64,000 nucleotides of DNA from an uncultured delta proteobacterium (GTDB lineage Bacteria > Desulfobacterota > Binatia > Binatales > Binataceae), in contig CAWCDG010000003.1 of NCBI GenBank assembly GCA_963794325.1, forward strand, positions 352,001 to 416,000, given 5' to 3'. Positions 24,843 through 34,789 of the stretch are shown here, piece by piece. How positions within the stretch are numbered: the stretch's first letter is position 1; every line of letters begins with the position of its first letter. The notes beneath the pieces are model-generated. The model did not search any database. It saw nothing but the letters and a program-made list of their open reading frames with translations, and was not told the origin of the DNA. A program made the position numbers and the translations under genes.

Positions 24843-26906
24843 ATGCGACGACCTACACTTTCGCTGCGCACCGATCAGTTCGAATACGTTCAGCTGATTC
24901 TGCTGGCGGTCACCGTCGGCATTCTCGCGGCGCTCGGAAATCTGGGCTTTCGCCAACTGATCGAATTTTTCTCGTGGCTGTTTCGCGCGGTCGAGTGGAA
25001 CGCGCTCGGAATCCAGCACGCCGGATGGCATCGAGCGCTGATCCCGGCGATCCTGCTGAGCGGCGGCGTCGCGATCCTGTTGCTTGACCGCATCTTCCCG
25101 GGAGACGTGCTCGGTTACGGCTTTCCGAATTTCCTCGAAATGGTCAATCTCGGCACCGCTCGACTCAAGCGCCGTTGGATCTTCGTCAAAGCCGCGGGAG
25201 CCGCGCTTTCATTGGGCGCGGGCGCGTCGGTCGGACGCGAAGGTCCGATCGCGCAGGTCGGGGGTGCGATCGGCTCGACTATCGCGCAGCTCAGAAAATT
25301 GTCGCCGGACCGTGCCAAGGTGCTGATCGCTGCAGGAGCGGGTGCCGGTATCGCTACAACCTTCAATGCGCCCATTGGCGGCCTGATGTTCGCGCAGGAA
25401 GTCGTCCTGCTCGGCCACACCGAAATCGCCAATCTCACATTGCTGATCATCGCCACCTTCACCGCGGTTATTACTTCGCGCGCGATTCTCGGCAATGCGG
25501 TCGTCTTCATCACGCCCGAATTCGTGCTGCGCAGCTACTGGGAGATGGCGACCTATGCGCTCATGGGCGCGGCGCTCGGCGCACTGGCCGCAGGCTACAT
25601 CCGATTCTTCAACGCCACCGAGGCATGGTTTCGCCGGCTCGACCTACCCGTCTGGGTGAAGCTCGAGGCGGGACTTGCCGTCGTCGGCGTAATTGCAATC
25701 TGGCTTCCGCAAAACTTGTCCGACGGGTATCCGGTGATCAACCGCGCGATGGCCGGCGAGTTCGGCATCGGAATGCTGGCAGCGATGGCCTGCGCGAAAA
25801 TCTTCGCCAGCAGCGTCTCGCTCGGATGCGGTGCTCCGGGAGGCTCCTTCGGACCGACGTTCTTCATCGGCACGATGGCCGGCGGCCTGTTCCAGCGCAT
25901 CTCTTCGCTGGTAATTCCTTCGCTGACCGGACCTCGCGGATCGTACGCGCTGGTAGGGCTCGGTGCGTTTCTGGCTGGTACCACGCACGCGCCACTGACT
26001 GCGCTGTTCCTGCTCTGGGAGATGACGCACAGCGATACGATTGCGTTGCCCTCGATGATCGCGACGATCACGGCTCTGGTCGTGGCTCGCGCGATCGAAA
26101 CCGAATCGATCGACGAGTTCCGTCTCGCGCGCGCGGGCAAAAAGCTGCAGATTGGCCGCGAGCGGTTGGCGCTCACGCTCATACCAGTCAGCGCCGTCGT
26201 AACCAAGAACGTGACGATGGTGTCTGAAAACACTTCGCTCACGGAAGTTCTGCGCACCGCGGGTGAGACCGCCCAATCGACGTTGCCGGTCGTCGATAGC
26301 GACGGTAACTTCGTCGGGACGATCGTGGTCCGTGATCTGTTGTCGATGATCGGCGGCGGTCAAGAGCTTGGCCCGCTCGTCAACGCATTCGACATTTGCA
26401 ATACGCATGCTCCCACGGTGCCGCTCGACGCGAACCTCGATGAGGCGAGCCAGCTGATGGAGCACGACGGCCTCGACGAGATTCCGGTCGTCGATCGCAC
26501 CACACTGCGGTTTCTTGGGCTCGTGACGGGCAGGCATATTGCGCAAGCGCTCAATCGCGTGTCGGTGTCACTCTCGACGCTCGCGACCCGCGACTCAAAC
26601 ATTTACTGGGCGACCGGCTATCGCGTGACGCGGCTCACGGTTCCCGCTACCGCGGCGGGGAAAACTGTGCGTCAGATCGATCCGCGCGCGCGATTCAGCG
26701 TCACGGTTCTGGCTGTTCAGGATGCGAACAATCCGGACGGCGGTTTCGCGCCGATCACTCCTGACCTCCCATTGAAAGCAGGCGACGAATTGATCGCGGC
26801 AGGACGTCCGCAAGATATTCGGCAATTCACAGCTGAATTGGACAGCGTGGAACCTGTCGGCGCGGCGCGCGCCTCATCTCAGGCGAGCGGATCGGGAAAG
26901 ACGTAG
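24843..26906 (+). CDS. ClC-family anion channel/antiporter with CBS pair and TrkA-C (RCK-C) domain
   Basis: GREGP, FNAPIGG.MFAQE, GG.FGP, HAPLTA motifs; two CBS repeats; C-terminal AGKTVRQIDPR...LKAGDELI. Confidence 0.92.
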   Translation: MRRPTLSLRTDQFEYVQLILLAVTVGILAALGNLGFRQLIEFFSWLFRAVEWNALGIQHAGWHRALIPAILLSGGVAILLLDRIFPGDVLGYGFPNFLEMVNLGTARLKRRWIFVKAAGAALSLGAGASVGREGPIAQVGGAIGSTIAQLRKLSPDRAKVLIAAGAGAGIATTFNAPIGGLMFAQEVVLLGHTEIANLTLLIIATFTAVITSRAILGNAVVFITPEFVLRSYWEMATYALMGAALGALAAGYIRFFNATEAWFRRLDLPVWVKLEAGLAVVGVIAIWLPQNLSDGYPVINRAMAGEFGIGMLAAMACAKIFASSVSLGCGAPGGSFGPTFFIGTMAGGLFQRISSLVIPSLTGPRGSYALVGLGAFLAGTTHAPLTALFLLWEMTHSDTIALPSMIATITALVVARAIETESIDEFRLARAGKKLQIGRERLALTLIPVSAVVTKNVTMVSENTSLTEVLRTAGETAQSTLPVVDSDGNFVGTIVVRDLLSMIGGGQELGPLVNAFDICNTHAPTVPLDANLDEASQLMEHDGLDEIPVVDRTTLRFLGLVTGRHIAQALNRVSVSLSTLATRDSNIYWATGYRVTRLTVPATAAGKTVRQIDPRARFSVTVLAVQDANNPDGGFAPITPDLPLKAGDELIAAGRPQDIRQFTAELDSVEPVGAARASSQASGSGKT

Positions 26907-27538
26907 GGACGCGCACGTCCCGCTCGAATTTCTGCGCACATTTCCTCGACCGTCTTTACGTCGTTGTCGAATTCAGTCGCGACGGTCATGAACCATTTTC
27001 CAGTGGCGAAATGAGCGTCGCTGCCACCGACCGCGGTCAGCCCGAGCTTGAGTGCCGCGTCCTCGGCTCGCCGATTCTCCTCGACCGAGTTCTGACCGTT
27101 CAAAACTTCGACCGCCCCAATCGCCGCGCCATGACGGCTCAGCAGCGCATCCAGCCGCACTCCGTAGCCCGAATCGCGAAATGGATGCGCCGGAATTGCG
27201 ACGCCGCCCTCGTGATGAATCACTTCAATCAGGCTGTCGCTCTTGAGCATCCGCGCCGTCAGATCGAATCGCCGCATCACTTCTTCGTTCACCCCGAACA
27301 GCAGCAGATGGCCGAGGTCGGTGTCGGCCTCAATCCCTCTGAAGATGGCGATTTGAAATCGTTCCGCGAGTTCCGCGTACAGTCGCTCGACGTCGGCATC
27401 GATCGGGAACAGCCGATGCTCTGTAAAACAGATGGCGCCGAGGCCCCGTCCCGAACTCTTCGCGAATTCAAGATACTGCTCGGGTGCGACGTTGGAGTCT
27501 GACGAGAGCCTCGTGTGGACGTGGAGGTCGGCGATCAT
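26879..27538 (-). CDS. PHP-domain phosphoesterase
   Basis: DLHVHT, FTEH, GIE, GHLL, AHPFR, GGSDAH metal-binding motifs. Confidence 0.9.
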   Translation of the reverse strand: MIADLHVHTRLSSDSNVAPEQYLEFAKSSGRGLGAICFTEHRLFPIDADVERLYAELAERFQIAIFRGIEADTDLGHLLLFGVNEEVMRRFDLTARMLKSDSLIEVIHHEGGVAIPAHPFRDSGYGVRLDALLSRHGAAIGAVEVLNGQNSVEENRRAEDAALKLGLTAVGGSDAHFATGKWFMTVATEFDNDVKTVEEMCAEIRAGRARPYVFPDPLA

Positions 27539-27548
27539 CAACAGGACT

Positions 27549-29069
27549 TTACGGCTCGGCGAAGAAGTTGTCGCGCACCTGAATGTGGTCCTCGATCGAG
27601 AAAATTCGCGCCACCAGGAAAATCTGGGTCTGCACCATCAGGCGATCAGCTTCGGTCGGCACGGTTCCCCATAAGATGATCGTGTCACCGTCCATTTTGA
27701 AGCGCACTGAGCTGTAGCCCTGCATGTCCAGCGCCCGGCGAAGCGCCATCTCCCGCGGCGTTGTGTGCGGCGGATCAGCCGGCTCACCCGGGACGGGCGG
27801 CGCAGGATTCGGCTCTGACGGCACCGATCCATAGTCGGGTCCGGTATCGCCGTCGGAAGGCTGCGGCTGCGACGAATGAAAAATCAGGTAGCCCATCAGG
27901 AAAAATCCGCCGACCACCAACGCCATCAGTCGCGCCGAATGCCGCCGGCGCCGCCGCTCGTGAAAAATCGGCCCCGGAAAATCGTGCGGCGCGGCAACGT
28001 CGTCGAGCATGATCGTCTGCGCCTCGGGCGTCGCGCCGCGATCTGTCCCCGACAATCGTCCGGTCACGTCGGCGGCGCAGAACGAGCAGAAGTTCGAATC
28101 CACCGGGATGCTTCGGCCGCATCGCGGGCACTCAGTGTCGATCGCGTTGCTCAGCATCGTCGGCGCCGACGCGTGCTGCTCTTTGGACTTGACGCCGCTC
28201 AGGGGCAGCTTGAGTTGTGGACGCGCGGCCCGGCCGGAGGAATTGCGCTGCGGCGCAGCCATCGGCGTCCCTGACTTGATCGCCATCAGCCGCTGTCTGA
28301 ATTCCACGGCGTCAGCAACGCGCAAAGCCACGTCGTACTTGAGGGCCTGGTCGACCACTTCGCATAGCGCGGGAGTGACCTCAGGACATAGCGATCGCAA
28401 CGGAGGAAAACTGAACGGCGGCTCGAGCGCGGGGTCGCGGCCCGACAGCGCATGATGCATCGTGGCGCCCAGTGCATACAGGTCCGATCGGAACTCGACC
28501 TTGCCGCGATATTGTTCCGGCGGCGCGTAGCCTTGCGTGCCGATCATCGTCGCGTTGCTGAGCGGCTGGAACAGTCGCGCGATTCCAAAGTCGATGAGCT
28601 TGACCTGCTCCGACGGCGTTAGCATCACGTTCGACGGCTTCAGGTCGCGATAGATCACCGGCGGTTCCAGGTTGTGCAGATACTCGAGCGTGTCGAGAAC
28701 CTGCAGCGCCACGTCGATAACCTCGCTCTCGGGAAGCTGGCCGCCGGCGCTCTGGAGTTTCTGCTCCAGCGTTATCCCGCTGATGTACTCCATGACGAGA
28801 TAGTGATGGTTCTCATCGCTGAAGCGATCGAACACGCGCGGGATATGTTCGTTGCTGAGTTGCGCCAGCATGTCGGCTTCGCGCTGAAACGCCGCGACCG
28901 CCTGCTTCTGAGTTTCGGGGCTGGTGAAAGTATCGACCATCTCGGCCAGCGCACACTCGCGCGCGGCGAGCCGCAAGTCCTCGGCCAGATAGACGAGCTT
29001 CATCCCGCCGCCGCCAAGCGGCTTCATCACGCGGTAACGTCCGCCAATGATCGTGTTGGGCGCAATCAT
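27549..29069 (-). CDS. Membrane-anchored Ser/Thr kinase with WNK-like Lys placement, Zn ribbon, TM and BON-like domain
   Basis: GGGGMK, CALAE, FQREA, YRDLKPSN, DFG, GTQGYAPPE, SDLYALG; CPRCG...CSFC; TM after an RRRRRH stretch; GDTIILWGTV...IEDHIQV BON-like tail. Confidence 0.93.
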   Translation of the reverse strand: MIAPNTIIGGRYRVMKPLGGGGMKLVYLAEDLRLAARECALAEMVDTFTSPETQKQAVAAFQREADMLAQLSNEHIPRVFDRFSDENHHYLVMEYISGITLEQKLQSAGGQLPESEVIDVALQVLDTLEYLHNLEPPVIYRDLKPSNVMLTPSEQVKLIDFGIARLFQPLSNATMIGTQGYAPPEQYRGKVEFRSDLYALGATMHHALSGRDPALEPPFSFPPLRSLCPEVTPALCEVVDQALKYDVALRVADAVEFRQRLMAIKSGTPMAAPQRNSSGRAARPQLKLPLSGVKSKEQHASAPTMLSNAIDTECPRCGRSIPVDSNFCSFCAADVTGRLSGTDRGATPEAQTIMLDDVAAPHDFPGPIFHERRRRRHSARLMALVVGGFFLMGYLIFHSSQPQPSDGDTGPDYGSVPSEPNPAPPVPGEPADPPHTTPREMALRRALDMQGYSSVRFKMDGDTIILWGTVPTEADRLMVQTQIFLVARIFSIEDHIQVRDNFFAEP

Positions 29070-29128
29070 GCCTAAAATCAGAATCTAACCATTATCTGAT
29101 TTTATAACAGCCCGCGCGCTTCCCGGAT

Positions 29129-29470
29129 TCATCGCGCCAGCATGTCTTCCCGGGGTGTTCCGGAGAAGGCCGCATTAGCCCCACATATTATATGGATGAG
29201 GATGCCAAATGGCGGCCCCATCCCGTACGCTATCGACACGAAAAAGAACCACATGATGCCCTTGAAGGGCTTGCCGCGGTAGATGTGCCCGACGCCCGGA
29301 ACGATGCTGAGCACGAGCGCGATCACCGGGTTGAATCCCGAACCTCTGTGCAACAGCGATAAACGTGTCGTCGGCGCGCCGCACGATTTGCAATAGCTCG
29401 CCTCGGCGACGACGATCGGCTGGCCGCATCGCGAACAGAACCTCGGTTTTTCGAAATCAGCGTCAGCCAC
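29129..29470 (-). CDS. Zinc-ribbon membrane protein (TM2-like)
   Basis: FCSRCG...YCKSCG; ALVLSIVPGVGHIYRG; GTG start overlapping the upstream stop. Confidence 0.8.
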   Translation of the reverse strand: MADADFEKPRFCSRCGQPIVVAEASYCKSCGAPTTRLSLLHRGSGFNPVIALVLSIVPGVGHIYRGKPFKGIMWFFFVSIAYGMGPPFGILIHIICGANAAFSGTPREDMLAR

Positions 29471-30794
29471 GGAAGACAAACTGCGCGTCGCCGAAGCGTA
29501 CAGCCTCGCCGTCGTTCACCTTGGTTGGCTCGGTCACGCGCCGATTACCGACGAACGTCCCGTTCTGACTGTTCAGGTCGCGCACCACAAAGGCGCCGTT
29601 GGAATTCTCGATACTCGCGTGATGCCTCGAGATCGAGGAATGGCTGACCACGATTTCATTGTCCAGCGCGCGCCCGATGTGGGTAACCGCGCCGGGACGC
29701 ACGGGATACGCCTGCCCGGACGCGTCGATCAGGCTCGGCCCATCAACTTTGGCATTTGCTCCCGCCAGCCGTGTCGCGATATGCGCAGGATTCACCGCGT
29801 CGGATGCGAGCGAGGCCTGCTGGCGCGCGGGCGACGACGACCCGCGCAGATGGAACTTCATTTCGTAACCGCCGATGTTGACCCGATCGCCGTCGTGCAG
29901 ATCTACAGTCTCGATTCGCTTGCCGTTGACGAACGTACCGTCCTGCACCGCAAGATTCCTGATGACGTAATCAGCGCCGCGCCGCTCGATTACCGCGTGC
30001 CGTTGCTGCACCGACGGGTCGCCGAACAAGCCGACCGGGTTTTCTTCGGCGCGCCCAATCGTCGCGCGCGCTCCTTCGATTCGGTACTGGCGTCCGCGCA
30101 AGCGTCCCTGCTCGACGGTGACCCACGCGGCCTTGGTCATCTCTTGTACCAGCCCGATGAACAGTCCGATCGCAAGGCCGGTTATCGCCTCGCCAAAAAA
30201 TCGCGACGCCAGCCCGCCGCCGACGACCGATCCGATCAAATCAAATGCGATTCCGCCGACCGCTCCGCCAACCAGTCCACCGACCGCTCCCTTGGGCACG
30301 TTTTCCATCGTGAGCGTTGCCAATCCCACACCGGCGCCAACCAGCGCGCCATCGATGGCCCATCCCAACAGTCTTGCGATTATGAGAACGACGATCGATC
30401 CCGAAACCAGCTCACCATTCGGACTGAACCCGACGCCGCCAACTTGAAGGACCAGGTTGAAGACGTAGTTCCCGAGGTAAGTGGAGAGCAGCGACAGCAG
30501 CGCGCAAATACCGAAGCCGCGGAGGAATCGACGCTTGGCCTCCGGCGTCACGCGAACCTCTGAGGTGTCCACCGCCGTGATGAACGCGCCGATCGCTCCG
30601 GCCGCGATCGCCGCCGAGATGTAGTACGCGATCAAATCCCCGGTCGTCTGCGCCTCGCCCAGATGCGAATTGTGCGAAGCCAGTTCGACCGGGAGCCATC
30701 CGATCGCGCCACCCACCAGGCCCGCGAGAGCCTTGAAGGTCAATTCGCGCCGGTTCAGAGAATCGCTTTTCAGTAGAGCTAGAGGTGAGTCCAC
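29463..30794 (-). CDS. Multi-TM protein with two C-terminal FHA domains
   Basis: Gly-rich TM helices; IGR...RHA...GTFVNG and IGR...ISRHHA...SQNGTFV. Confidence 0.9.
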   Translation of the reverse strand: MDSPLALLKSDSLNRRELTFKALAGLVGGAIGWLPVELASHNSHLGEAQTTGDLIAYYISAAIAAGAIGAFITAVDTSEVRVTPEAKRRFLRGFGICALLSLLSTYLGNYVFNLVLQVGGVGFSPNGELVSGSIVVLIIARLLGWAIDGALVGAGVGLATLTMENVPKGAVGGLVGGAVGGIAFDLIGSVVGGGLASRFFGEAITGLAIGLFIGLVQEMTKAAWVTVEQGRLRGRQYRIEGARATIGRAEENPVGLFGDPSVQQRHAVIERRGADYVIRNLAVQDGTFVNGKRIETVDLHDGDRVNIGGYEMKFHLRGSSSPARQQASLASDAVNPAHIATRLAGANAKVDGPSLIDASGQAYPVRPGAVTHIGRALDNEIVVSHSSISRHHASIENSNGAFVVRDLNSQNGTFVGNRRVTEPTKVNDGEAVRFGDAQFVFRG

Positions 30795-30948
30795 GACGCC
30801 CTCGGCAGCAGCATCCAGGTGAAACAGTTACCAATATAATAGCCCGCATCCGCGCGCTGGAAAACGCCGTCGCTGAACAGCATGCAATCAGCGGGCTGCG
30901 GGGCTCATATTGCTCCCCCCGAACAAAAACAGGCATCATCGCGAGGCG

Positions 30949-32190
30949 ATGAGCATCGAAAATCTGGTTACTGAAAAGTTCGGCCCGCTGCAGGGCGTGA
31001 AGATCATCTCGACCGGAACCCTGATTGCGCAGCCGTTCGCCGCCGAACTGGCCGCCGAGATGGGCGCGGAGGTGATCCAAATCGAGCGGCCCGGAATTGG
31101 CGACGTCGGATGGCGCAATATCGGCATCCGGCTCAAGACCAGGGACGGCAAGTCCGCCGTTGCGACGACCTGGATCCAGGAACGCCGCAACGTGTTTTGC
31201 ATCTCGCTCGATCTGTCGAAGCCGCGCGGCCGCGAAATCTTTTTGAAACTCGTCGCGCGTGCCGACATCTGGATGGAAAGTTCGAGGCCGGGCACCTATC
31301 CGAAATGGAAGCTTGACGACGCGTCGGTTTGGAAGGTCAATCCGAAACTGGTGATCACTCACGTCTCGGGATTCGGACAAAGCGGCGATCCTGACTACGT
31401 CCATCGCGCGTCGTACGACGTGGTTGGGCAGGCGGTCGGCGGCACGATGATCCAGACCGGTTTTCCCGATCCGATTCCGCCGACGCGCGCCGCGCCGTGG
31501 ACCGGCGACTATATTACCGCGCTTTTCACGATGTGGTCGTCGCTCGCCGCGCTGACGTACGCGCGCACCACCGGCAAGGGTCAGTCGATCGACGTCGCGC
31601 AGTACGAAGCGATTCATAAAACGCTGGGCGGAACGATGGTTGAGTACTTCCAGAATGGCGTCGTGCGCGAGCGATCGGGCAATCGCGCGCAGGGCTTTCA
31701 GCCACTCGATTCTTTTCAGGCAATTGACGGATGGGTCGTGATGGGCGCGATAGGCGACGTGTACGCGCGGATGCTCGGCGTGATCGGGCTGGATCAGACC
31801 GACCCGAAATGGGAAACGGCGCGCACTCAGCTCGAATCGATCGAAGGGATCGAATTCGACGCGATCCTGCGCGGATGGATTTCCGAGCGCACTGTGAAAG
31901 ACGTCGTGACCGCGATGGCAGCCGCCAACGTGCCGTGCTCGCCGATTATGACGAGCAAGGACATCGCCGAGGACCCGCAATACCGCGCGCGCGGAATGCA
32001 CGTCGAATGGGAAGACGGGCAAGTGGGCAAGGTGAAGGGCATCGGCGTCGCGCCAAAGTTCTCGCGCACCCCGGGAAAAATCGTACGCGGATCCGTACCG
32101 CTCGGCCACGACAACGATCGCATCTATCGCGAGATGCTCGGCGTCAGCGCGGACGAACTCGAATCGCTCCGCCGCGAAAAGGTGATCTAA
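30949..32190 (+). CDS. Family III CoA-transferase (CaiB/BaiF-like)
   Basis: FGPLQGVKI...IAQPFAAE...GAEVIQIE, SGFGQSG, GDY. Confidence 0.92.
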   Translation: MSIENLVTEKFGPLQGVKIISTGTLIAQPFAAELAAEMGAEVIQIERPGIGDVGWRNIGIRLKTRDGKSAVATTWIQERRNVFCISLDLSKPRGREIFLKLVARADIWMESSRPGTYPKWKLDDASVWKVNPKLVITHVSGFGQSGDPDYVHRASYDVVGQAVGGTMIQTGFPDPIPPTRAAPWTGDYITALFTMWSSLAALTYARTTGKGQSIDVAQYEAIHKTLGGTMVEYFQNGVVRERSGNRAQGFQPLDSFQAIDGWVVMGAIGDVYARMLGVIGLDQTDPKWETARTQLESIEGIEFDAILRGWISERTVKDVVTAMAAANVPCSPIMTSKDIAEDPQYRARGMHVEWEDGQVGKVKGIGVAPKFSRTPGKIVRGSVPLGHDNDRIYREMLGVSADELESLRREKVI

Positions 32191-33014
32191 CTCGCGACTC
32201 TCGTCAAGAAGGTCTCGACCGATTTCCCGAATGCCTTCTCGTCCGGATAGCGGCCCAAGTCCAAAATGAAATAGGTCGCGCCTACTTCCTGCTCGGCGGC
32301 GACCTTTGCACGTGCCGCGCCGATATCGTCGAGCTTGATTCCGCGCCGCACGACAATCTCGGGAGCGTCGCGTCCAGCGGCGCGCGCACGTGAATTCAAT
32401 TCTTCAACTTTTGCTTTAAGTTCTGCCGCGGGCAGCATCGGATGCCAGCCGTCGCCGAACTTCACCACGCGATTCATCGCAGCCGGCCCGCTGCCTCCCA
32501 CCCAGATAGGCGGGCGGCGGGGCCTTGGCAGGAACATGAACGACGGGAACTTCACCAACGGGCCTGTGTAGGCGCCCGGCTCGTCAGCGCTGAACAGATG
32601 GTGAATCACGCTCAGCGTCTCATTGGTAATCGCGCCGCGCCGGTGAATGTCGACGCCGAGCGCGTCGAACTCCGGCTTCATCCATCCGACGCCGACGCCC
32701 AGGATCATTCGCTCGCCCGACAGTTCCTGGATCGTCGCGACCTGCTTCGCGGTCAACACGGCGGGCCGATAAGGAACGACCAGCACTGAAACGCCAAGCC
32801 GGATTTTCTCGGTCGCCCCGGCGATGAACGCCAGTGTCGCTAGCACGTCGAGATAACGTCCGCCACTGCCTTCGGTCTGGTCGACAGGGATGCACAAATG
32901 ATCCGATACAAAGAGCGCGTCGAAGCCGGCTTGCTCAGCGATTCGTGTGCATGCGCGAATCGTCGCGCGATTGGATTGCGGACCCATGTTGCGGATTGCG
33001 ACGCCAAATTTCAT
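32187..33014 (-). CDS. LLM-class (probably F420-dependent) oxidoreductase
   Basis: AEQAGFD.LFVSDH, AKQVATI, LGVGVGW..EF, PPIWVGG, GDGW. Confidence 0.88.
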   Translation of the reverse strand: MKFGVAIRNMGPQSNRATIRACTRIAEQAGFDALFVSDHLCIPVDQTEGSGGRYLDVLATLAFIAGATEKIRLGVSVLVVPYRPAVLTAKQVATIQELSGERMILGVGVGWMKPEFDALGVDIHRRGAITNETLSVIHHLFSADEPGAYTGPLVKFPSFMFLPRPRRPPIWVGGSGPAAMNRVVKFGDGWHPMLPAAELKAKVEELNSRARAAGRDAPEIVVRRGIKLDDIGAARAKVAAEQEVGATYFILDLGRYPDEKAFGKSVETFLTRVAS

Positions 33015-33109
33015 CGCTGACTCCTCCAGCTACATCACGACACTGAAAAGAAGACTGGCAAGCGCGCGCGCATCCAGTCAAACTACTCGGCCACTGGAGG
33101 CGACAACGC

Positions 33110-33742
33110 GTGGGCCGTCCATCCGCGAAGCAACGCAAGCCTTATAACCTCGACGCGATCCTCGACGTGGCGGTGCGCGTGTTTCGCGAGCGCGGCTACG
33201 ACGGCAGCACGCTCGACGACGTCGCGCGCGCCGCGGGAATCACCAAGGCCAGCATCTACTATCACGTCCGCAGCAAGGAAGAGCTGCTGGCGCGCGGCGT
33301 CGGCCGCGCGCTCGACGCGCTGTTCGCGGTGCTCGACGAGCGGCCCGCAAAGCGCGGCCGCGCGGCGGCGCGTCTCAGGTACATCGTGCACCGCACCATC
33401 GAGATCACCGTTGAGCAATTGCCCGAAGTGGCTCTCCTGCTGCGTGTGCGCGGCAATACCCCGGTCGAGCGGCGAATCATGGAACGGCGCCGCGCGTTTG
33501 ACCATCTGATCGCGAGGCTGATGCGCAACGCGCAGCGACAGGGCGATTTGCGCGCCGATATCGAGCCGCGGCTGGCGACGCGTCTGCTCTTCGGAATGCT
33601 TAACTCGATCACTGAATGGTATCGGACCGGCGGCGACCTCGATGCGCCGGAAGTGGCCGAGGCAGTTTTCCGGATTGCGTTCGAGGGAATGGAGCAGGGC
33701 GCTCAACGCCGCATTTTGACAAATCAACCAAATGGTAGGTAA
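33110..33742 (+). CDS. TetR-family regulator, PaaR-like
   Basis: HTH (LDDVARAAGITKASIYYHVRSKEELL); LLLRVRGNT and RLLFGMLNSITEWY resemble actinobacterial PaaR; GGAGG RBS. Confidence 0.88.
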   Translation: MGRPSAKQRKPYNLDAILDVAVRVFRERGYDGSTLDDVARAAGITKASIYYHVRSKEELLARGVGRALDALFAVLDERPAKRGRAAARLRYIVHRTIEITVEQLPEVALLLRVRGNTPVERRIMERRRAFDHLIARLMRNAQRQGDLRADIEPRLATRLLFGMLNSITEWYRTGGDLDAPEVAEAVFRIAFEGMEQGAQRRILTNQPNGR

Positions 33743-33745
33743 AAT
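33716..33745 (+). promoter_or_regulatory. Putative sigma-70 promoter with TetR-type operator inside the tetR 3' end
   Basis: TTGACA (33716)-18 bp-TAAAAT (33740); ACC-N8-GGT in the spacer. Confidence 0.55.
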
Positions 33746-33760
33746 AGATTCAGGTGTCAT

Positions 33761-34789
33761 ATGCCGATGAGTGAATTCGAAATCCCCGCAGGCGGCCTGG
33801 TCGAGGCGCCAGCCGTCGCCCAGCCGAATATTTTTCCGATCGAATGGCGATGCGAGACGCCTAAGCTCGCCGAGATTTACGAGCGCGCCAAGCGCGAGGG
33901 CTTCAATCCCGCGGATATCAACTGGAGCGAGCTTTTGCCCGAGGCATGGAGCGACGACCAGAAGGTCGCGATCATGTACTGGTGGGCGCTCCTTTCCAAC
34001 TTCGACTCGTCGGGGCCGGCGGTGTTCGCCCGCGCGACGATTCATGCGTGGGAGATGCACGAGGAAGATCCGGTCCGCAAATGTTTCTTCTCGATTACCC
34101 GCGACGAGACCAATCACGAGGAAACCTGCCAGCGCGTTATTCAGCGCCTGGTCCCGAACGGCCCGCAGGGCTTCACTCCCACCAGCGAACTGCAGCGCGT
34201 CGCGCTGAACAATATCGGCTGGCTCTATCATAACGGCGGCCGCTACTGGACCGGTTACAACCGCGCGATCGATCGCTATCCGCTCGCCGTCATCTTCACC
34301 TCGTTCATGATGGGCGAAGTGGCGTCGTCAACGCTGTTCCACGGCATGGCGCATGCCACGACTCATCCGGTGTTCCGCGAAATCTTCACCAAGATCGGTC
34401 GCGACGAAGCACGTCATTTGCAAATCTGCATCAACCTGCTCGAGAAGGAGTGGCCCGGCCTCACCGACGAGCACAAGACCTTCATCACCAAGCAGCTTCG
34501 CGCGGGCTTCGTGTTCCTCTCGATGGTGCTATGGGAGCCGCCCGCACAGTTCTGGGATTTGCCCGGTTACTTTCTGCATAACCACAGGATTCTGTTGCGC
34601 ACCGCGCGCGAGGCGGGACTCGGAATCCTCACCTACGAGCAACAAGCCGACAATTGGCGGCTCGCGATCGCGCGCGTCCGCAAGCTGGTCGAGCGATGGG
34701 ACATCCAGTTCCCCGCGATTCCGGAACTTGATATTGAAGGAGTTGACGTCGGCGATATCACCGCCGAAGACATCATCCCCGTGTTCTAG
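33761..34789 (+). CDS. Ferritin-like di-iron protein of unknown function
   Basis: Two D-E-x-x-H motifs (RDETNH, RDEARH) plus helix carboxylates (NFD, MGE). Confidence 0.8.
   Translation: MPMSEFEIPAGGLVEAPAVAQPNIFPIEWRCETPKLAEIYERAKREGFNPADINWSELLPEAWSDDQKVAIMYWWALLSNFDSSGPAVFARATIHAWEMHEEDPVRKCFFSITRDETNHEETCQRVIQRLVPNGPQGFTPTSELQRVALNNIGWLYHNGGRYWTGYNRAIDRYPLAVIFTSFMMGEVASSTLFHGMAHATTHPVFREIFTKIGRDEARHLQICINLLEKEWPGLTDEHKTFITKQLRAGFVFLSMVLWEPPAQFWDLPGYFLHNHRILLRTAREAGLGILTYEQQADNWRLAIARVRKLVERWDIQFPAIPELDIEGVDVGDITAEDIIPVF

Follow-up and report, generated by a model that had tools for sequence, protein, structure and literature searches.

A receptor-type kinase gene with a lysine in the glycine-rich loop

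The subject of this analysis is a gene encoding a receptor-type Ser/Thr kinase on contig CAWCDG010000003.1 of an uncultured delta proteobacterium of the family Binataceae (assembly GCA_963794325.1). The window is the whole 64,000-nucleotide stretch analyzed here (contig positions 352,001 to 416,000, forward strand), and all positions below without a contig name are counted from its first letter. According to the list of open reading frames (ORFs) and the translation, the gene occupies ORF 27549..29069 on the minus strand and codes for a Hanks-type Ser/Thr kinase of 506 amino acids; all features of this protein are therefore given on the minus strand. An initial annotation, made from the letters of the window, had described it as a bacterial counterpart of the eukaryotic With-No-Lysine (WNK) kinases, carrying a paired change at the two positions that define that family. 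Direct reading of the minus strand confirms both residues. Within the N-lobe (residues 18-44, LGGGGMKLVYLAEDLRLAARECALAEM), the third glycine of the glycine-rich loop LGGGGMKLVY (residues 18-27, 28989..29018) is replaced by Lys24 (codon AAG, 28998-29000), and Ala42 (codon GCC, 28944-28946) stands in place of the VAIK lysine in strand β3 (CALAEM, residues 39-44, 28938..28955).

The other catalytic motifs are all present in the translation, as the annotation had claimed: FQREA in the αC helix (FQREADMLAQL, 28857..28889) with Glu64 (GAA, 28878-28880), the catalytic loop YRDLKPSN (residues 140-147, 28629..28652) with D142, K144 and N147, DFG (residues 160-162, 28584..28592), and APPE (residues 182-185). 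The Pfam profile Pkinase (PF00069) matches residues 12-213 with an E value of 1.4e-35 and 123.4 bits, above the gathering cut-off of 31.7. Judged by the criteria for Hanks-type kinases, the αC Glu, the HRD-type Asp, the Asn, the DFG Asp and the APE Glu are kept, and the β3 lysine is lost.

The HMMER alignment with StkP of S. pneumoniae pairs K24 with the Ala in GRGGMA, which occupies the third-Gly position, and A42 with the Lys in VAVK. The closest paralog in the source genome reads LGGGGMGMVY...RPCAIKEM at the equivalent positions. In the available text of PMC1821047, the WNK lysine K72 is described as shifted to position 55 of the glycine-rich loop (PKA numbering). Because PKA position 55 corresponds to the third Gly in GxGxxG, K24 occupies the WNK position; its equivalence to WNK K233 is based on this literature numbering and on the alignment to canonical kinases. 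The paired change at the WNK-defining positions is thereby borne out. In the following, we use K/A for proteins with Lys24 and Ala (or Ser) at position 42, and G/K for the canonical combination of Gly24 and Lys42.

Lys24 and Ala42 are conserved as a pair

A strain-specific mutation would leave ordinary Gly and Lys residues in related proteins. Instead, each of the 120 close homologs listed (81-97% identity) retains GGGGMK...ALA. We took the 150 best matches from a full HMMER scan of 1.84 billion representatives of protein clusters formed at 50% identity. In this set, homologs down to ∼51% identity carry K24 together with A42 (S42 in one case), and canonical relatives (≤55% identity) carry Gly, Ser or Ala together with Lys.

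Co-occurrence of the two residues, suggested as a check in the initial annotation, was counted among all collected proteins whose best alignment spans the region from the glycine-rich loop to DFG, a set of 424 relatives that is selected by similarity and redundant and does not represent a random sample. Lys24 is combined with Ala or Ser at position 42 in 290 proteins, a residue other than Lys24 with Lys42 in 129, and Lys occupies both positions in none. The remaining five show S/R, G/E, S/A and, in two cases, alignment gaps; no convincing G+A intermediate is found among the 424. E64, D142, N147 and D160 are jointly kept in 287 of the 290 K/A proteins, at divergence down to 48% identity.

An alignment of 50 clade members diverging to 50% identity gives a similar picture. 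K24, K144, N147, D160 and E185 are invariant, and A42, E64 (98%), D142 and R63 reach at least 90%. At position 42, Ala accounts for 98% of the clade and Lys for 100% of the canonical relatives. We defined a separating position as one at which the clade consensus reaches at least 85% and the same residue occurs in at most 15% of the sequences outside. Only positions 24 and 42 out of 270 separate the 50 clade rows from the 74 others in this way, and no further kinase-domain position is clade-specific by this measure. The activation-loop residue T174 is present in 96% of the clade and 59% of the relatives. As far as these alignments tell, the change in the kinase domain is a clean two-residue swap in an otherwise intact catalytic core, and they support the view that selection also maintains the other parts of the catalytic machinery.

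At the DNA level, 44 distinct genes from related genomes use AAG (29) or AAA (15) for K24 and GCC (36), GCG (6) or GCT (2) for A42, both residues being fixed. This synonymous codon turnover, beneath a pair that is fixed across the whole clade and family, agrees with the earlier argument against sequencing error or decay.

The K/A kinases form one clade among canonical bacterial kinases

A maximum-likelihood tree was calculated from 124 kinase domains, the query and 123 representatives with near-full coverage. All 50 K/A(S) rows fall into one clade (Shimodaira-Hasegawa-like approximate likelihood ratio test, 99) that is nested among canonical bacterial kinases, and one state change suffices on this tree. 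The clade is also obtained after removal of the two trait columns. Since the K/A rows form one clade with one change, their co-occurrence is, on the evidence of this tree, one ancient event followed by strict maintenance.

The distribution of the gene was surveyed in species-representative genomes at a threshold of E ≤ 1e-95; the window genome is included, and the family counts take in four genomes flagged as unpublished (G468, G482, G495, G442). An ortholog-level match was found in 75 of 81 Binataceae genomes; the matches cover 28 of 30 genera and include 55 of the 56 high-quality genomes. Completeness ranges from 53 to 94% in the six family genomes without a match. Every family gene checked is of the K/A type (44/44). 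The homologs come from sources labeled Candidatus Binatus or Candidatus Binataceae, and a few are labeled "Deltaproteobacteria bacterium," "Acidoferrum" or "Limnocylindrales." Two to three copies are present in a few genomes, the extra copies (59-65% identity) again being K/A and the next match (56%) G/K. At one family locus (L148), two K/A kinase genes lie next to each other on opposite strands. The ortholog match of one genome (G438, C15:851724-852521, 68% identity) contains two in-frame stops (one TGA, one TAA), pointing to a possible pseudogene or misassembly; this genome also carries a K/A paralog of 61% identity (L147).

Across the class (41 genomes, 15 families), the K/A gene occurs in five genomes of the family only, and two genomes of another family contain a homolog of 51-54% identity that is G/K. 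A strict DNA pattern, which would miss variants such as GGGGQK, recovered from 401 genomes of the phylum the same five family genomes and one additional match (G024), which we read as a non-kinase false positive. When genome contigs were searched with a profile of the clade alignment, the at least 80 matches listed comprised only canonical proteins (Gly, Ser or Ala with Lys) or weakly aligned ones, and a protein-cluster search returned only generic bacterial Ser/Thr kinase clusters. Among the genomes sampled, the K/A clade thus appears confined to Binataceae.

The source genome contains five Pkinase loci, three of which retain the canonical β3 lysine: two close paralogs (GVGGMG...VAVKEM and GGGGMG...CAIKEM) and a more distant one. 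Both close G/K paralogs recur in each of the four further family genomes that were checked for paralogs. These canonical paralogs, one of an ∼800-amino-acid type and one of an ∼580-amino-acid type with a C-terminal FHA domain, are 51-55% identical to the K/A kinase in the kinase domain and share with it the motifs PP[VI]IYRD, GYAPPEQY and PPFSFPP. They differ by reading GGMG...CA[IV]KEM, that is, by Gly and Lys at positions 24 and 42.

The fifth Pkinase locus of the source genome (contig C4, locus L005 826-2865, plus strand) encodes a 679-amino-acid fusion of a zinc ribbon, a degenerate kinase-like region and a PP2C domain. The kinase-like region covers only positions 51-198 of the Pkinase profile and has no recognizable HRD or DFG. 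This gene is located between two canonical paralogs, the FHA-tailed kinase and an ∼790-amino-acid kinase.

Domain architecture

The protein is predicted to consist of a cytoplasmic kinase domain, a zinc ribbon, one transmembrane helix, a Pro-rich linker and a periplasmic BON-like domain. For the kinase domain (residues 1-270, 28260..29069), an AlphaFold2 (AF2) model was obtained with a predicted local distance difference test score (pLDDT) of 95.3 and a predicted template-modeling score of 0.92. A four-Cys zinc ribbon (CPRCG...CSFC, residues 314-331, 28077..28130), matched by the Pfam profiles Zn_Ribbon_1, DUF7575 and DZR below their cut-offs, is placed between the kinase domain and the membrane, and its Cys columns are kept in orthologs and basal clade members. 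The transmembrane helix ARLMALVVGGFFLMGYLIFH (residues 379-398, 27876..27935) is predicted from a hydrophobic stretch, read by eye, that follows an RRRRR motif.

The C-terminal domain (residues ∼438-498, 27576..27758) shows an α-β-β-α-β order in an AF2 model of the last 120 amino acids, with a pLDDT of ∼90 in this part. Foldseek matches are weak but consistent: OsmY is best with 1.8e-3, followed by CdsD, DolP, BonA and Kbp. Compared with the Pfam BON profile the domain scores an E value of 0.11 and 13.2 bits, below the cut-off of 27, and a precomputed match to BON (PF04972) exists for two orthologs. The predicted layout is that of a single-pass membrane receptor kinase with a BON-like periplasmic domain. 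Metagenomic members of the clade have other C-terminal sensors (FGE-sulfatase, NfeD, Sel1/TPR) and retain the zinc ribbon.

Genomic context and expression

The kinase gene is the third of an operon on the minus strand. The first gene (29463..30794) encodes a 443-amino-acid membrane protein. Two stretches of this protein match Pfam FHA (7e-36), corresponding to two FHA domains, and it also matches the NCBIfam model for FhaB/FipA-like proteins with 1.9e-29, below its cut-off. It is followed by a gene for a 116-amino-acid small membrane protein with a zinc ribbon and a TM2-like part (29129..29479; Pfam matches near or below cut-off). The 3′ end of the FHA gene overlaps the TTG, the putative start codon, of this small gene by 17 nucleotides (29463-29479), which suggests translational coupling. 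The order of FHA gene, zinc-ribbon/membrane gene and kinase gene recurs at all eight ortholog loci compared, which come from eight family genomes, and three extra K/A paralogs also adjoin FHA genes. FHA domains bind phospho-threonine. Because of this binding specificity, a kinase encoded nearby would be expected to be active.

Seven nucleotides past the kinase stop begins a gene for a 220-amino-acid PHP-domain metallohydrolase (26879..27541, minus strand; Pfam PHP and PHP_C, NCBIfam CehA/McbA-type below cut-off). It directly follows the kinase gene at four of the eight loci and follows after an insertion at one more. The PHP gene is possibly part of the operon and co-transcribed, and a role of its product as phosphoesterase or protein phosphatase is possible. 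Convergent to the operon and ∼0.65 kb beyond the kinase gene lies a gene for a ClC chloride channel (24960-26906, plus strand; Voltage_CLC 1.7e-79, two CBS domains, TrkA_C), whose 3′ end overlaps the end of the PHP gene. A ClC gene is found near the operon in five of the eight related loci.

On the other side, region 30910-34789 contains metabolic genes unrelated to the kinase operon, including a CoA-transferase family III gene (Pfam 1.2e-93); three more flanking ORFs were labeled from their sequence as a luciferase-like oxidoreductase, a TetR-type regulator and a ferritin/di-iron-like protein. These metabolic neighbors are syntenic in some relatives.

The window is matched in soil metagenomes. 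Three soil metatranscriptome libraries, which may contain DNA and are informative only for the parts covered, yielded contigs on the kinase gene at ∼90-98% identity. One contig of 255 nucleotides (28827-29081, five differences) spans both codons.

Proposed mechanism and alternative explanations

Building on the observed substitutions, their conservation, the single origin, the intact core, the fold and the operon, we consider it likely that the gene encodes an active, PknB-like receptor kinase with a relocated glycine-loop lysine, which arose once by duplication and swap, converged on the WNK solution and signals through an FHA protein. This model starts from the duplication of a canonical kinase of the type LGGGGMG...CAIKEM, which would date to the Binataceae ancestor or slightly earlier. 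One duplicate would then have gained the pair of G-to-K and K-to-A changes and settled in almost all members of the family as a single-copy gene, accompanied now and then by additional paralogs with other sensor domains. The lysine that anchors the phosphates of adenosine triphosphate (ATP) would thus have moved from strand β3 (now Ala42) to the third-Gly position at the start of β2 (Lys24). By analogy to WNK1, Lys24 would reach into the cleft from β2 and contact both the ATP phosphates and αC Glu64, and D142, N147 and D160 would perform phosphotransfer as usual. Since the WNK lysine at position 55 replaces K72, K24 could serve as the catalytic lysine; conservation and the WNK precedent both point to catalytic activity with K24 as the ATP anchor. 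Most probably, the kinase phosphorylates itself on Thr and passes its signal on to the two-FHA membrane protein heading the operon; both this partner and an input signal are what we infer for the receptor.

Some observations weigh against this proposal. The usual sequence rule, by which loss of the VAIK lysine is decisive, would label the protein a pseudokinase. All K/A sequences go back to one event, so that their perfect co-occurrence amounts to one evolutionary observation. The kinase domain of the K/A kinase also diverges somewhat faster between genome pairs (91/90/77/75% identity) than those of the canonical paralogs (94/96/84/87% and 94/93/85/77%), which could indicate slightly relaxed or altered constraint. 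Finally, the contigs from the RNA libraries belong to relatives and are weak support for, and no proof of, transcription of the gene.

Taken together with the absence of the VAIK lysine, the faster divergence could mean that loss of the β3 lysine ended phosphotransfer and left a pseudokinase, an ATP-binding or conformational scaffold or receptor that, for example, regulates the canonical paralogs or holds the FHA protein, K24 serving nucleotide binding or structure. Both the bSTK (bacterial Ser/Thr kinase) atlas (bioRxiv 10.1101/2025.01.12.632604) and PMC12599244, in their available text, class every family without this lysine as pseudokinases, and phosphorylation could be supplied by the canonical kinases elsewhere in the genome, where the PP2C fusion is present as well. 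Scaffolding pseudokinases, however, usually lose several catalytic residues: as described in the available part of the atlas, six of its seven pseudokinase families also lack the HRD Asp and several lack the DFG Asp, whereas D142, N147, D160 and E64 persist throughout nearly all K/A proteins. Moreover, the sole new invariant residue is a lysine, and it sits at the only position at which a lysine is known to restore catalysis, as in WNK. We therefore regard a pseudokinase as unlikely, while granting it real weight.

An active kinase might also position ATP without any such lysine and use K24 for regulation or for contacts with a substrate, an anion or a lipid. Non-canonical ATP binding is described for other atypical kinases in the available text of PMC12599244, and the geometry that links K24 to ATP and to E64 is deduced by analogy. 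This explanation would leave the perfect coupling of K24 gain and K42 loss unaccounted for, there being neither a K+K protein nor a convincing G+A protein among the 424 relatives, and likewise the fact that the only two clade-defining positions include the site of the WNK catalytic lysine. We hold it to be improbable.

The initial annotation had left open whether the kinase is convergent with WNK or related to it. The first part stands and the second does not. Common descent with, or horizontal transfer from, eukaryotic WNK kinases could explain why the same two positions have changed, and WNK3 chains appear among the better eukaryotic matches when the AF2 model of residues 1-270 is searched with Foldseek (ranks 34, 39 and 45). 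These chains are only 24-26% identical, no better than Aurora and TLK2, which they accompany; S. aureus Stk1/PknB and M. tuberculosis PknA and PknB come first, with 28-32% identity and template-modeling (TM) scores of 0.75-0.83. A PDB sequence search likewise places StkP on top (2.7e-36), followed by S. aureus PknB/Stk1, M. tuberculosis PknB and PknA, and PknG, and there is no WNK chain among the best 60 matches. With the 35-amino-acid N-lobe segment as query, only StkP and Stk1 were returned. A Pfam scan of the protein revealed none of the WNK accessory domains (autoinhibitory, CCT-like PF2, coiled coil). The protein also lacks the RFx[VI] motifs that WNK uses for OSR1/SPAK, the single R.F.[VI] match being situated in the periplasmic domain. 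In sequence, the K/A kinase is closest to canonical bacterial kinases, among them the paralogs from the same genome, and the K/A clade nests within such kinases in our tree, which was calculated without WNK sequences. Because of this nesting, and because StkP, PknB and PknA are the nearest solved structures, the data support a lysine relocation convergent with WNK and neither descent from it nor membership in the WNK/NRBP branch of the eukaryotic kinome; a true relationship is highly improbable.

In favor of faulty sequencing or assembly, or of gene decay in a single strain, nothing was found beyond the one ortholog with two in-frame stops. This explanation has a negligible chance of being correct and is effectively refuted by conservation across genomes, given the intact 506-amino-acid reading frame and the presence of the pair, with synonymous variation, in all 120 close homologs and all 44 genes checked elsewhere.

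If the kinase is active with a relocated lysine, as we propose, the relocation could have occurred for the same reason as in WNK. The vacated β3 site would then make room inside the active site for an inhibitory anion such as chloride, or for regulation that depends on water or osmolytes, and the protein would be an independently evolved sensor of intracellular chloride or of osmotic conditions. The OsmY-like ectodomain, the ClC gene near five of eight loci and the clash described for WNK are compatible with anion or osmotic sensing as circumstantial hints and constitute no test. The ClC synteny in particular is suggestive in view of chloride sensing by WNK, yet synteny within one family is weak evidence. 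We consider such a sensor function doubtful, a speculation with a small chance of being right.

Implications

If our proposal is true, the K/A kinases represent a second, independent and bacterial case, and lysine relocation would be a repeatable evolutionary outcome. They offer a minimal system with two clade-defining positions, in which canonical paralogs from the same genomes provide natural controls. Questions that could be addressed include whether relocation is neutral or linked to regulation by anions, osmolytes or nucleotide preference, and in which order the two changes can occur. For annotation, sequence rules under which any bacterial kinase lacking the VAIK lysine counts as a pseudokinase would mislabel a signaling gene that is nearly universal in Binataceae, abundant uncultured soil bacteria.

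Comparison with known systems

The initial annotation knew of no characterized bacterial example, and our searches agree: in the literature searched, with subscription journals largely outside its scope, we found no report of a WNK-type lysine in any bacterial protein kinase. A term search of the 2026 WNK review PMC13686953, in the text available, gave neither "bacteria" nor "prokaryot," and the available parts of the bSTK atlas and of PMC12599244 mention WNK solely as a eukaryotic analogy.

WNK kinases are treated in the accessible text of Kannan et al. (2007, PMC1821047) as the one functional protein-kinase family without the β3 lysine. According to the available parts of PMC13686953, their lysine placement underlies chloride sensing and inhibitor selectivity, and a canonical Lys would clash with the chloride site. 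Like WNK1-4, as far as PMC1821047 and PMC13686953 describe these in the same text, the K/A kinase has Lys at PKA position 55 and none at position 72 and keeps the αC Glu, the HRD-type Asp, the catalytic Asn and the metal-binding Asp. The β3 residue is Cys in WNK1 (PMC12599244, available text) and Ala here. Differences extend to the overall architecture, since the PknB-like K/A kinase, with its low identity to WNK3, has none of the CCT-like, autoinhibitory and coiled-coil regions of WNK and is, unlike WNK, a predicted single-pass membrane receptor with a zinc ribbon and a BON-like ectodomain. WNK kinases also carry DLG instead of DFG, whereas DFG is present here. In WNK, chloride bound in the active site inhibits autophosphorylation.

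A shift of the charge from position 72 to the glycine-rich loop is also known from CAK-chloro (Met72 with Arg55) and from POMK/SGK196, which has a glycine-loop Lys (PMC1821047 and PMC12599244, available text). These are small-molecule or sugar kinases, CAK-chloro having lost E91 and POMK containing DLD for DFG. Unlike them, the K/A kinase possesses an otherwise fully canonical protein-kinase core.

Seven bacterial pseudokinase families, CP1, DYD, ActPs1-3, DLHK and GLW, are described in the available text of the bSTK atlas and of PMC12599244. They share with the K/A kinase the absence of the VAIK lysine, but their losses extend to the HRD Asp, the DFG Asp or the αC Glu; DYD, for instance, shows a K-to-R change and no αC Glu. 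Compared by these descriptions, none of the families is reported with a glycine-loop Lys, and the K/A kinase falls outside the pseudokinase definition of the atlas, with only the VAIK lysine lost and D142, D160 and E64 kept.

The closest likeness is to StkP, PknB/Stk1 and PknA, the best matches both in sequence (E values from 2.7e-36 to 1e-24) and in structure (TM 0.75-0.83). These kinases have the same layout of kinase domain, linker, transmembrane helix and extracellular sensor, and they share the partnership with FHA proteins, represented here by the FhaB/FipA-like FHA protein of the neighboring gene. In contrast to the K/A kinase, their VAIK lysine is in place and the third-Gly position of their glycine-rich loop is occupied by Gly, Ser or Ala, and their sensors consist of PASTA domains, whereas that of the K/A kinase is BON-like.

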